Shown piece after piece: positions 33,425-36,505 of a stretch of 64,000 nt of DNA. A program made the translations under genes and the position numbers. The stretch lies in the sequence record MN895435.1, one strand, 5' to 3'. The DNA comes from Escherichia phage teqhal. The notes below the pieces were generated by a model. That model was not told where the DNA came from, did no database searches, and saw nothing but the letters and a program-made list of their open reading frames with translations. Positions within the stretch are counted from its first letter, which is position 1; every line of letters starts with the position of its first letter.

Positions 33425-34042
33425 TTATGCCTTACTAAATTTGCCTTTAGAATCTCTTTTCATGAGACGACCTTTAATAAATCCGTCGGGAATAATACCG
33501 TCTGGTTGTATTAATTTATTTATTGCACCGTTATTGACCCAAAAAGTTCCTGTGGTAGTCGGTTTGACTTTACATCCTTTTCTGGACTTTCTATTAGGAT
33601 GAACCATTCCTTTTACAAATCCTTCTGGAACAAGTTCTCCAGGTTTAATAAAAATATTTTTAGTTCCATTGGTGTAACAAGTTGTACCTAATACCGTGCC
33701 CGGTGAGTTTTCAAATCTCTTAGCGGAAGATTCTTTCATCTTTGCTATAACCTCTGTAGTCATAACAATTCCACCAATTCCACCAGGTTTCATATTATAA
33801 TAATTTTTGCTTTTTATTATTTCAGGAGTTATAATTTCTTCTTCATACATGTACGCTTCTTCGGAAGTTTTAAACTCTTTTAGTATTGTTCTAGAGAAAT
33901 TGTTTTCACCATATTTCTTTATAGCCTGCTGAATTGCCTTACCGGAACCAAGGTAACCATCATTCAAGTCATCAGTAGAGTGTTTTCCTATATACTTTTT
34001 ACCGTTTATTAGATTTGTTGTTTCATATACAAAGTGGTACAT
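33425..34042 (-). CDS. GIY-YIG homing-endonuclease-like protein (seg-like)
   Basis: 205-aa ORF; N-terminal HFVYETTNLINGKKYIGKH matches GIY-(10-11)-YIG spacing. Confidence 0.75.
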   Translation of the reverse strand: MYHFVYETTNLINGKKYIGKHSTDDLNDGYLGSGKAIQQAIKKYGENNFSRTILKEFKTSEEAYMYEEEIITPEIIKSKNYYNMKPGGIGGIVMTTEVIAKMKESSAKRFENSPGTVLGTTCYTNGTKNIFIKPGELVPEGFVKGMVHPNRKSRKGCKVKPTTTGTFWVNNGAINKLIQPDGIIPDGFIKGRLMKRDSKGKFSKA

Positions 34043-34070: not shown

Positions 34071-34078
34071 TATTTATA
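34071..34078 (-). promoter_or_regulatory. late promoter (TATAAATA on minus strand) upstream of the seg-like gene
   Basis: TATTTATA on plus strand 29 bp upstream of the minus-strand start. Confidence 0.55.
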
Positions 34079-34091
34079 CTGAGGAAATATT

Positions 34092-34772
34092 ATGATAGAT
34101 AAAGATTATATTGCAGAGCTGAAGGCTCTTGATGATAACAAAGAAGCTAAAGCTAAATTAGCTGAATATGCTGAACAGTTTGGTATAAAGGTCAAAAAGA
34201 ATAAATCTTTTGATAATATCGTTGTTGATATTGAAGAAGCCCTCCAGAAGCTCGCTAGTGAACCTATGCCGGAGACTGATGGGTTATCTATTAAAGACTT
34301 AATTGATGCTGCTGATGCTGCAGAGGGGTTAAAATATGACGATGAAGAAGTCAATCCAGAGGCAGCACTTCTGATTGATTCTCCGGTTAAATCTGACATT
34401 AAAATTGAAGTAGTAGAAATGGATAAAATTCCTGAAAATACCGATGTTTTGATTGAAGATACTCCTTTTGTTGAAGAAAAATTCGAGCAGGCTGTAGCTG
34501 AGATTATTGAATCTGAAAAGCCGTCTGTATTTACTCTTCCGGAAAACTTTAGTCCGAATCTTCAGCTGATTGGAAAAAATCCAGGATTCTGTACCGTTCC
34601 TTGGTGGATTTACCAGTGGATTGCTGAAACTCCGGATTGGAAATCTCACCCAACTAGTTTTGAACACGCGTCGGCGCACCAAACTTTATTTAGCTTAATT
34701 TATTACATTAATCGCGACGGATCAGTTCTAATTCGTGAAACACGTAATTCTTCTTTCGTAACATTAAAATAA
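34092..34772 (+). CDS. inh: Inh, inhibitor of prohead protease gp21
   Basis: 226-aa ORF; size and position (before hoc) as T4 Inh. Confidence 0.8.
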   Translation: MIDKDYIAELKALDDNKEAKAKLAEYAEQFGIKVKKNKSFDNIVVDIEEALQKLASEPMPETDGLSIKDLIDAADAAEGLKYDDEEVNPEAALLIDSPVKSDIKIEVVEMDKIPENTDVLIEDTPFVEEKFEQAVAEIIESEKPSVFTLPENFSPNLQLIGKNPGFCTVPWWIYQWIAETPDWKSHPTSFEHASAHQTLFSLIYYINRDGSVLIRETRNSSFVTLK

Positions 34773-34781
34773 GGATAACTT

Positions 34782-36200
34782 ATGGCTTTTACAGTTGATA
34801 TAACTCCTAAAACACCTACTGGAGTTATAGATCAGACTCAGCAGTTTACTGCTACACCCAGTGGTCAAACTGGAGATGGACCTATTACATATGCTTGGAC
34901 TGTAGACGACGCTCCACAGGAAGAAACGTCAGCAACTTTTAGTTATGTATTAAAAGGACCTGCCGGTCAAAAGACTATTAAAGTAGTTGCAACAAATCAA
35001 GTTGCCGATAGTAGTCCCGAAACAGCTGAAATTAGTACAACTATCACAGTTCAAAATAAGACACAAACGACTACCTTAGCTGTAACTCCTAATAGTCCTC
35101 CGGAAGGAGTAATCGGAACAGCTGTTGAATTTACCGCTGCTTTGGCTTCGCAGCCATCAGGCGCATCTGCTACGTATCAATGGTACGTTGACGGTTCTCC
35201 TGTGAGCGAAGCGACTAGCGCTACATTCAATTACACTCCTGACACAAGCGGAGTTAAAACAATCAAGTGTGTGGCTCAAGTAACCGCGACAGATTATGAT
35301 GCAAAAGAAGTTACTTCTAATGAAGTGTCATTGACTGTTAATAAAAAGACACAGATAACTACTTTGGCAGTAACTCCCGATAGTCCTTCAGCTGGAGTAA
35401 TTGGAACACCAGTTCAATTTACTGCTGCCTTAGCTTCTCAACCTGATGGAGCATCTGCTACGTATCAGTGGTATGTAGATGATTCACAAGTTGGTGGAGA
35501 AACTAACTCTACATTTAGCTATACTCCAACTACAAGTGGAGTAAAAAGAATTAAATGCGTAGCCCAAGTAACTGCTGAAAATTACAATGAAAAGGAAGTT
35601 ACTTCGAATGAAGTATCATTAACAGTTAATAAGAAGACAATGAATCCACAGGTTACATTGACTCCTCCTTCTATTAACGTTCAACAAGATGCTTCGGCTA
35701 CATTTACTGCTAATGTCACTGATGCTCCAGAAGAAGCGCAAATTGCGTATTCATGGAAGAAAGATTCTTCTCCTGTAGAAGGGTCAACTAATGTATATAC
35801 CGTTGATACCTCATCTATTGGAAGTCAAACTATTGAAGTTACTGCAACTGTTACTGCTGCTGATTATGATAGCAAAACTATTACGGCGGAAGGTCAAGTT
35901 CAGGTAACTGGTAAAGTTGCTCCAGAGCCAGAAGGTGAATTACCTTATGTTCATCCTCTTCCACATCGTACTTCAGCTTACATCTGGTGTGGTTGGTGGG
36001 TTATGGATGAAATCCAAAAAATGACCGAAGAAGGTAAAGATTGGAAAACTGACGATCCAGATAGTAAGTACTACTTGCATCGTTACACTCTCCAGAAGAT
36101 GATGAAAGACTATCCAGAAGTTGATGTTCAAGAATCACGTAATGGATACATCATTCATAAAACTGCTTTAGAAACTGGTATCATCTATACCTATCCATAA
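34782..36200 (+). CDS. hoc: Hoc outer capsid decoration protein with four tandem Ig-like domains
   Basis: 472 aa; N- and C-terminal regions match recalled T4 Hoc (376 aa); extra 96-aa Ig-like domain from internal tandem repeat. Confidence 0.9.
   Translation: MAFTVDITPKTPTGVIDQTQQFTATPSGQTGDGPITYAWTVDDAPQEETSATFSYVLKGPAGQKTIKVVATNQVADSSPETAEISTTITVQNKTQTTTLAVTPNSPPEGVIGTAVEFTAALASQPSGASATYQWYVDGSPVSEATSATFNYTPDTSGVKTIKCVAQVTATDYDAKEVTSNEVSLTVNKKTQITTLAVTPDSPSAGVIGTPVQFTAALASQPDGASATYQWYVDDSQVGGETNSTFSYTPTTSGVKRIKCVAQVTAENYNEKEVTSNEVSLTVNKKTMNPQVTLTPPSINVQQDASATFTANVTDAPEEAQIAYSWKKDSSPVEGSTNVYTVDTSSIGSQTIEVTATVTAADYDSKTITAEGQVQVTGKVAPEPEGELPYVHPLPHRTSAYIWCGWWVMDEIQKMTEEGKDWKTDDPDSKYYLHRYTLQKMMKDYPEVDVQESRNGYIIHKTALETGIIYTYP
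35061..35636 (+). repeat. in-frame tandem duplication (2 x 288 bp) encoding two Ig-like domains within hoc
   Basis: aa 94-189 and 190-285 align end to end (TQ[T/I]TTLAVTP...EVSLTVNKK), ~80% aa identity. Confidence 0.85.
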
Positions 36201-36204
36201 TCAT

Positions 36205-36232
36205 AAGGGGCTTCGGCCCCTTTCTTCATTTT
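36205..36232 (+). terminator. rho-independent terminator after hoc
   Basis: ggggc-ttcg-gcccc followed by tttcttcatttt. Confidence 0.75.
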
Positions 36233-36289
36233 GAAAGCACACAAAACACAATCAGAAAATGATGTATATAATGGCACCAACTCGATAAC

Positions 36290-36505
36290 ATGAGATTGAT
36301 TATGAGAACTGAGGTTGTGGTGTTTACTCTTCATGAGTCTGGAAAGTCATTCATTGAAATTGCTCGTGAATTAAACTTACAGGCAAAAGAAGTGGCTGTA
36401 TTATGGGCTCGAGCTATGACTGCTAAGAATAAATTTGAAACTCGAGAAAAAGTTGTCTATAGAAAAAGACATATCAATAAAAAGGTGAAAAATGGAACAG
36501 TATGA
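36290..36505 (+). CDS. hypothetical protein (71 aa, T4 24.3 position)
   Basis: ORF. Confidence 0.55.
   Translation: MRLIMRTEVVVFTLHESGKSFIEIARELNLQAKEVAVLWARAMTAKNKFETREKVVYRKRHINKKVKNGTV

Follow-up and report, generated by a model that had tools for sequence, protein, structure and literature searches.

A Hoc with two diverged tandem copies of Ig-like domain 2 in Escherichia phage teqhal, and the copy-number variation of this domain among Tequatrovirus alleles

The hoc locus and the domain layout of its product

The sequence analyzed here, referred to as the window, is a 64,000-nt stretch of Escherichia phage teqhal (record MN895435.1). The phage is a Tequatrovirus, and the 20 kb around hoc are 98.0% identical to Escherichia phage AdolfPortmann. 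The hoc gene is placed between inh and 24.3/24.2/rnlB, near genes 24 and 23, in an ORF order that agrees with the T4 annotation and with 12 related loci, and segE lies ~740 nt upstream of it. The protein encoded in the window is an exact match to GenBank QHR63771.1 (Escherichia phage teqhal) and was identified as Hoc through a phmmer match to the T4 Hoc chain 5vf3_Z (E 1.5e-213) and a match to PHROG 1149, annotated as 'Hoc-like head decoration' (E 2.4e-140), with its C-terminus covered by matches to PHROG 21694, 14282 and 1149. Its predicted mass and isoelectric point are 50.8 kDa and 4.47, as compared to 40.4 kDa and 4.74 for T4 Hoc. The coordinates of the gene, its domains and the adjacent signals are collected in Table 1. 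A search for the T4 late promoter TATAAATA on the plus strand before inh or hoc returned no instance. The sole nearby copy of this sequence spans 34071-34078 and, being on the minus strand, points towards segE.

Table 1. Coordinates of hoc, of the domains that it encodes and of adjacent signals in the window, with the basis for each assignment and identities to T4.
Feature	Residues	Coordinates	Strand	Basis and remarks
Ribosome-binding region, Shine-Dalgarno-like (TAAGGATAACTT)		34768..34781	+	Direct sequence reading; abuts the hoc ATG, 9 nt past the inh stop codon
hoc		34782..36200	+	ORF list; 472-aa product
Ig-like domain 1	1-92	34782..35057	+	AlphaFold2 beta-sandwich; 84.8% nt and 77% aa identity to T4 domain 1
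Repeat unit A (type A), first copy of Ig-like domain 2	93-188	35058..35345	+	Tandem Repeats Finder and second repeat search; ~78% nt identity (77.8%) to T4 domain 2
Repeat unit B (type B), second copy of Ig-like domain 2	189-284	35346..35633	+	90.6% nt identity to T4 domain 2, central 144 nt identical
Last Ig-like domain, equivalent of T4 domain 3	285-376	35634..35909	+	Pfam Ig_3 and I-set at aa 289-373; 85.9% nt identity to T4 residues 189-280
C-terminal capsid-binding domain	377-472	35910..36197	+	97.9% aa (94/96) and 95.8% nt identity to T4 Hoc 281-376
Terminator-like GC-rich hairpin with UUCG loop, then T run		36206..36232	+	Direct sequence reading; 3' of hoc, identical in T4

Domain boundaries were set by the linker motif TVxNKKT, instances of which are found at aa 89, 185 and 281. 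The Pfam models PKD, Ig_3, PKD_4 and PKD_3 scored above their cut-offs, with matches distributed across both the repeat and the last Ig domain. In the AlphaFold2 model, which was based on 37 homologues, four beta-sandwich domains were obtained with block pLDDT values mostly of 88-96; the C-terminal domain was modelled with low confidence (pLDDT 40-65). The best Foldseek matches against the PDB are four-Ig ectodomains, namely those of Dscam1, Sidekick and ICAM-5 (D1-D4). The four Ig-like domains are mutually paralogous (26-39% identity, z 8-16). Units A and B (78% aa identity) are by far the closest pair, and domain 1 shares ~36% aa identity with both of them (z 12-15). The C-terminal domain is the one that contacts gp23* in the cryo-EM structures of T4 (PMC10385173).

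The locus is therefore read, with a probability of roughly 90%, as an intact and expressed-looking hoc gene of the 472-aa class that encodes Ig-like domain 1, two diverged tandem copies of domain 2 (units A and B), the last Ig domain and a conserved capsid-binding domain; no observation runs counter to this layout. The original prediction, made from the sequence alone, had set the 472 aa of this protein against 376 aa for T4 and had attributed the 96 additional residues to a second copy of an Ig-like domain, and both statements hold. In the T4 reference genome (NC_000866) hoc spans 1131 nt and encodes 376 aa, the length also of PDB chain 5vf3_Z, so that T4 Hoc does not share the 472-aa length and four Ig-like domains of the window protein. 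Residues 1-106 align to T4 residues 1-106 and residues 193-472 to T4 residues 97-376, leaving over one 96-aa unit, the Ig-like nature of which is borne out by Pfam PKD/Ig matches on both copies and by the four beta-sandwich domains of the structural model.

Identity to T4 was also compared along the locus. It amounts to 98.2% nt in segE, 97.1% in inh and 100% in the hoc-24.3 spacer, as against ~85% in domain 1 and the last Ig domain of hoc (Table 1), and the Ig-coding part of the gene is thus a local island of divergence among better-matched neighbours. Between the window and T4, dN/dS is ~0.44, 0.30 and 0.22 in the Ig domains versus 0.04 in the capsid-binding domain.

Age of the tandem repeat and selection on its copies

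The repeat was detected by Tandem Repeats Finder with a period of 288 nt and 2.1 copies (35046-35639, 76% matches, score 678), and a second repeat search paired 35046-35333 with 35334-35621 at 74%. Placed on the linkers, it consists of 2 x 288 nt at 35058-35633, in frame, with each copy amounting to one whole domain and its edges falling on TVxNKKT motifs. The interval first proposed, 35061-35636, is the same in-frame repeat taken in another phase, beginning at codon 94, and the two strings given as examples of its divergence, ttagctgtaactcct and ttggcagtaactccc, are found at ~35074 and ~35362. Units A and B are 75.0% identical at the nucleotide and 78.1% at the amino acid level (protein alignment score 374, z = 56 versus shuffles). 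As had been stated, synonymous differences are many, most synonymous sites differing between the copies (pS 0.66; dS ~1.57, saturated), with dN at 0.129 and dN/dS at ~0.08; for the flanking hoc domains, dS between the window and T4 is 0.2-0.4. The differences at the residue level fall in loops, outside predicted strands, in 17 of 21 cases (Fisher p 3e-4), and the two units have an equal strand pattern in the AlphaFold2 model. The fold is therefore retained in both copies, with their differences placed mostly on loops, and the in-frame duplication has been followed by purifying selection on both units.

The form of the repeat, with an exact 288-nt period, in tandem and in frame, would by itself suit a duplication by recent replication slippage, or an artefact of assembly, with no biological standing. 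Such an origin can be given practically no credence here. The divergence of the two units, with a longest identical run of 17 nt, and the loop bias of their differences rule out both recent slippage and assembly error, in agreement with the original prediction on the former, and the arrangement recurs in the independently sequenced phages RB30, PP01, wV7 and A2 and in the slur phages. In addition, each copy has nearer counterparts in other phages (85-100% nt) than in its own gene-mate (75%). Unit A is 98-99% identical at the nucleotide level to unit 1 of Shigella phage A2 and to the lone unit of a three-Ig allele (L003), and unit B matches a three-Ig allele of the B type (L004) at 97% and the second unit of phage A2 at 100%. 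The event is therefore old, and because the A-B arrangement is common, unit by unit, to many Tequatrovirus phages, it is older than the spread of these alleles.

Unit types, order and copy number across alleles

The hoc gene of the window, used as query, matched 684 phage records, and prevalence was estimated from two evenly spaced samples of 60 rows each. In the first, four-Ig genes (1419-1425 nt) accounted for 21 of 52 full-length T4-type genes and three-Ig genes (~1131 nt) for ~29; in the second, obtained with T4 hoc as query, ~20 of 54 genes were four-Ig, ~30 three-Ig and 4 two-Ig. A 472-aa Hoc is encoded in ~37-40% of the sampled Tequatrovirus records. Among the best 120 protein clusters, 81 have a length of ~376 aa, 30 of ~472 aa and 9 of ~568 aa, and the 90%-identity cluster that includes the window Hoc has 167 members, such as RB30 AAM52483.1 and the proteins of slur02, Sf23, NBG2 and IME340. 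Hoc lengths among relatives are 283, 376, 472 or 568 aa, corresponding to two to five Ig-like domains; RB32 Hoc has 376 aa, as in T4. The four-Ig Hoc is hence an ordinary, widespread allele. Domain-number variation of Hoc has also been published: the number of Ig-like domains in its homologues ranges from one to ten (Fokine et al. 2023, PMC10385173), and PNJ-9 Hoc is a published short variant matching the 283-aa form of EP01 (Fu 2024, PMC11853027). With the 472-aa allele deposited and variation in domain number on record, the feature is therefore already known, and a search of the open-access literature returned no paper naming the 472-aa Tequatrovirus allele or analyzing its duplication.

Typing of 171 domain-2 units from 121 alleles resolved three DNA types: A (unit 1 of the window), B (unit 2 of the window) and C (for instance unit 3 of UGKSEcP1). 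Nucleotide identity between types is 75% for A-B, 78% for A-C and 84% for B-C, and 85-100% for one unit type across phages. Alleles with one unit were of type A in 27 cases, B in 21 and C in 8, with 25 further alleles carrying A/B mosaics. Two-unit alleles were A-B (23), A-C (3) or B-C (1), and in 4 others a mosaic unit came after A. In alleles with three units, A comes first in 9/9 and the last unit is C or C-like in 6 and A-like or an A/B mosaic in 2, the remaining one (P0053) being divergent. The reversed orders B-A, C-A and C-B were not observed among the 121 alleles. The A-B-C order is not absolute, as two of the five-Ig alleles close with an A-like or A/B-mosaic unit.

Site-by-site painting of the units revealed that they are strongly mosaic, with type switches occurring in tracts inside units. 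Nine multi-unit genes were compared internally: identity between the units of one gene is 75-82%, and the longest stretch of matching bases spans 17-44 nt. Homogenized unit pairs, as would be produced by concerted evolution, were sought in these nine genes with none being found. Domain 2 of T4 is itself an A/B mosaic. Its 5' end and ~nt 227-245, encoding residues TATDYDA, are of type A, and the remainder is of type B; neither of the two copies in the window is hence simply the inserted one. The clearest cases of a difference in copy number come from alleles that are otherwise near-identical. The lone unit of the three-Ig allele L003 (P0114) is 98.3% identical at the nucleotide level to unit A of the window, its last ~15 nt being B-type, and the 240 nt past it are identical to the last Ig domain of the window; L003 is the window gene from which unit B is cleanly absent. 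An unequal crossover close to the 3' ends of A and B could have produced it, and it could equally be the parent of the array. A second allele, P0076, is A-type for ~80 nt and B-type thereafter. Copy number thus shifts by exact 288-nt steps between otherwise near-identical alleles (L003, P0076), and domain 2 is a copy-number-variable cassette. One, two or three copies of it, added to domain 1 and the last Ig domain, yield proteins of 376, 472 and 568 aa. Units are probably gained and lost through unequal homologous recombination, acting on the diverged units or on their linkers.

The direction of these changes was weighed on the same alleles. The original prediction had named two possible origins, an ancient event or recombination with a divergent hoc allele, and the present data would accommodate either. 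It is possible, if on balance doubtful, that the multi-unit array is ancestral and that the 376-aa Hoc of T4 is derived, an unequal crossover having deleted one or two units, so that the domain in the window would be 'retained'. On this view the difference in length may reflect the loss of a unit in T4 and not a gain in the window. The A/B mosaic in T4 domain 2, the simple 5'-A/3'-B chimeras of the three-Ig alleles P0076 and P0088, and the B-type tail of L003 are consistent with such deletions, and a fixed A-B-C order fits the subsets A-B, A-C, B-C, A, B and C. The same chimeras, however, arise via allelic recombination of single-unit genes, which suffices as a source of mosaic single-unit alleles just as unequal crossover does. 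Moreover, 5'-B/3'-A patterns, which simple deletion does not predict, are also frequent, and RB69, the outgroup, possesses a single domain of the A/B/C kind.

Another origin, which we regard as rather unlikely, would have A and B begin as once divergent alleles of a single domain 2, joined during co-infection by an unequal heteroallelic crossover at the linker; the divergence between A and B would then, on this same tentative footing, date the alleles and not the joining event. Three-Ig alleles of pure A type (98% nt to window unit A) and of pure B type (97% to window unit B) both exist, as this joining would call for, and the Ig-coding part of hoc is highly allelic, being 15% nt away from T4 in domains 1 and 3 while its flanks are 97-100% identical. 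T4-type phages also recombine readily, and segE, the homing of which is described in PMC2330249 as co-converting flanking DNA, is close at hand. Repeated independent joinings should nonetheless yield both orders, and the A-B order is present in 23 clusters, with none reversed, and extends to C. Within four-Ig alleles unit 1 has diversified to 85-90% and unit 2 to 92-94%, and any single joining would therefore itself be old. Finally, the loss of units from an array of A-B or A-B-C accounts equally well for the single-unit alleles.

A broader account can be sketched in which domain 2 of Tequatrovirus Hoc would constitute a cassette array of three types in near-fixed order and one to three copies, changing in 288-nt steps. 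Unequal recombination would expand and contract it, and recombination around the neighbouring segE may promote these changes. Niche-dependent selection on fibre length and on the number of glycan-binding modules might maintain the array, and identity among its copies might be held at 75-82%, without matching stretches longer than 44 nt, since repeats of greater similarity would be deleted in phages so proficient in recombination. Taken as a whole this account is speculative and somewhat improbable. Regarding segE, its homing into RB30 co-converts flanking DNA according to PMC2330249 (citing Kadyrov 1997), and the notion that it could promote allele exchange at hoc is put forward purely as an idea. 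The segE gene is present alongside both three-Ig and four-Ig hoc genes.

Functional implications and comparison with known systems

In T4, Hoc is located as one monomer at the centre of each gp23* hexamer, is dispensable for growth and forms a fibre of 18 nm. Given the T4 structures and the near-identity of the interacting partners (gp23 of the window is identical to T4 gp23 at 495/503 positions), the Hoc of the window would be expected to sit likewise at the centre of the gp23 hexamer, with one monomer in each. Its fibre would probably be ~4-5 nm longer than that of T4, the length of one Ig domain, and the extra unit would be predicted to display one further glycan- or surface-binding module. 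The motif NEVSLT is found at N180-T185 and again at N276-T281 of the window protein; the alignment shows no variation at S183, L184, S279, L280 and T281 and hardly any at T185. In PNJ-9 Hoc, NEVSLT is reported to bind MUC2 fucose, with S183, L184 and T185 needed for MUC2 binding (PMC11853027). The long allele, in which the motif is present twice, may therefore offer two putative MUC2-binding sites.

As regards Hoc, T4 is unrepresentative of its genus, with about 4 in 10 of the sequenced relatives encoding a protein that is one domain longer, and some a protein two domains longer or one shorter. This is relevant to phage display on Hoc, to generalizations on mucus adherence that are based on T4 and to the choice of T4-like phages for therapy. 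No new biological question is opened, as variation in the domain number of Hoc homologues was already published. The sole new point is the cassette pattern, in which units of distinct types follow a fixed order and vary in number by clean one-unit indels, a modest population-genetic observation for which no description at the population level was found in the open-access literature; Fokine et al. 2023 (PMC10385173) list domain-number variation without analyzing it as a cassette polymorphism inside a single genus.

T4 Hoc (NP_049793, 376 aa; PDB 5vf3, 8t1x) shares with the window protein the position of its gene between inh and 24.3, domain 1, the last Ig domain, the capsid-binding domain and its acidity, and differs in having domain 2 in one copy, an A/B mosaic, instead of two. 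The A-B architecture of the window is found in PP01 (472 aa), wV7 (474 aa), Shigella phage A2 (473 aa), RB30 and the slur phages, the Hoc proteins of which differ from that of the window by allelic substitutions and one- or two-codon indels only; hoc of phage A2 is 98.4% identical to the window at the nucleotide level. In 568-aa proteins, such as that of Escherichia phage UGKSEcP1, there are three units, typically A, B-like and then C. The 283-aa proteins (EP01; PNJ-9, PMC11853027) lack the last Ig domain and are made up of domain 1, a single unit of type A and the C-terminal domain. Unit boundaries and unit types are the same in both of these length classes. At a greater distance in sequence, the Hoc-like fibre of Serratia phage Muldoon has 10 Ig-like domains and follows the same plan of a conserved capsid-binding domain and a variable string of Ig domains (PMC10385173).

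RB69 Hoc (AAP76093, 471 aa, Mosigvirus) can be aligned collinearly with the window protein from end to end (59% identity) and has four Ig-like domains and a near-identical C-terminal domain. Some Tequatrovirus phages, for instance Yersinia phage PYps35T, carry an RB69-type hoc, in which only the last 276 nt match the window. The four-domain Hoc of RB69 was considered as proof that the duplication predates the genus, and rejected as such, since unit B does not correspond to RB69 domain 3 (39% identity) and is closer to RB69 domain 2 (52%). Across A, B and C, identity is 52-53% to RB69 domain 2 and 39-41% to RB69 domain 3. The four-Ig architectures of the window and RB69 therefore differ in origin, and, with all three types nearest to RB69 domain 2, the multiplication of A, B and C is specific to the T4-type hoc lineage, the A-B duplication being younger than the split from RB69-type hoc.

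Divergence of hoc from T4

In the comparison with T4, the stretch of hoc that encodes the Ig-like domains forms a divergence island. Across positions 34092-36290 of the window, segE, inh and the hoc-24.3 spacer share 97-100% identity with the T4 locus, hoc domains 1 and 3 share approximately 85%, and the C-terminal domain of hoc shares 96%.

Hoc architectures and labels in related records

Yersinia phage PYps35T (MT515754, 658-2073) is classed as a Tequatrovirus and carries a 471-aa hoc of the type found in RB69. The PYps35T gene matches that of the window only over its last ~276 nt, corresponding to the capsid-binding domain (96%), which suggests that its whole Ig string was exchanged and that the breakpoint lies where the C-terminal domain begins. 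A shorter form is encoded by Escherichia phage EP01 (OM135583, 601-1452), the 283-aa Hoc of which consists of domain 1, one A-type unit (a domain 2 copy of the same sequence type as window unit A) and the capsid-binding domain, and lacks the third Ig domain of T4. About 4 of 60 sampled records appear to share this architecture. In the T2 record (LC348380, 5374-6600) the hoc region is broken into two short ORFs labelled 'hypothetical', and the T6 record (MH550421, 2590-3849) presents a hoc-sized gap of 1260 nt with no annotated gene; Hoc may be disrupted in the laboratory strains behind both entries.

The names given to Hoc in public records are inconsistent, encompassing 'capsid whisker(s) protein', 'capsid and scaffold protein', 'PKD domain protein', 'endonuclease', 'baseplate wedge subunit' and 'capsid vertex protein'. 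A 32-kb record titled 'Staphylococcus phage SAJK-IND' (MG010123.1), probably a mislabelled or contaminated entry, carries a T4-type four-Ig hoc that is 94.3% identical to that of the window.

Genes on either side of hoc

Features near hoc in the window
Feature	Position	Strand	Context
segE, GIY-YIG homing endonuclease gene	33425-34042	-	flanked by uvsW and inh
Gene 24.3 ORF, 71 aa	36290-36505	+	downstream of hoc

The segE gene, 98.2% identical to T4 segE at the nucleotide level, is found among related phage loci in L004, T4 and T6, and is missing from most of the others compared (L002, L003 and L005-L013). Co-conversion of flanking DNA during segE homing is described in a published account (PMC2330249). 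The hoc gene lies within the DNA flanking segE.

The gene 24.3 product comprises 61, 67 or 71 aa in relatives. The 71-aa product of the window compares with 56 aa in T4, where the gene lacks 11 internal residues (AMTAKNKFETR) and its annotation begins at a later start.
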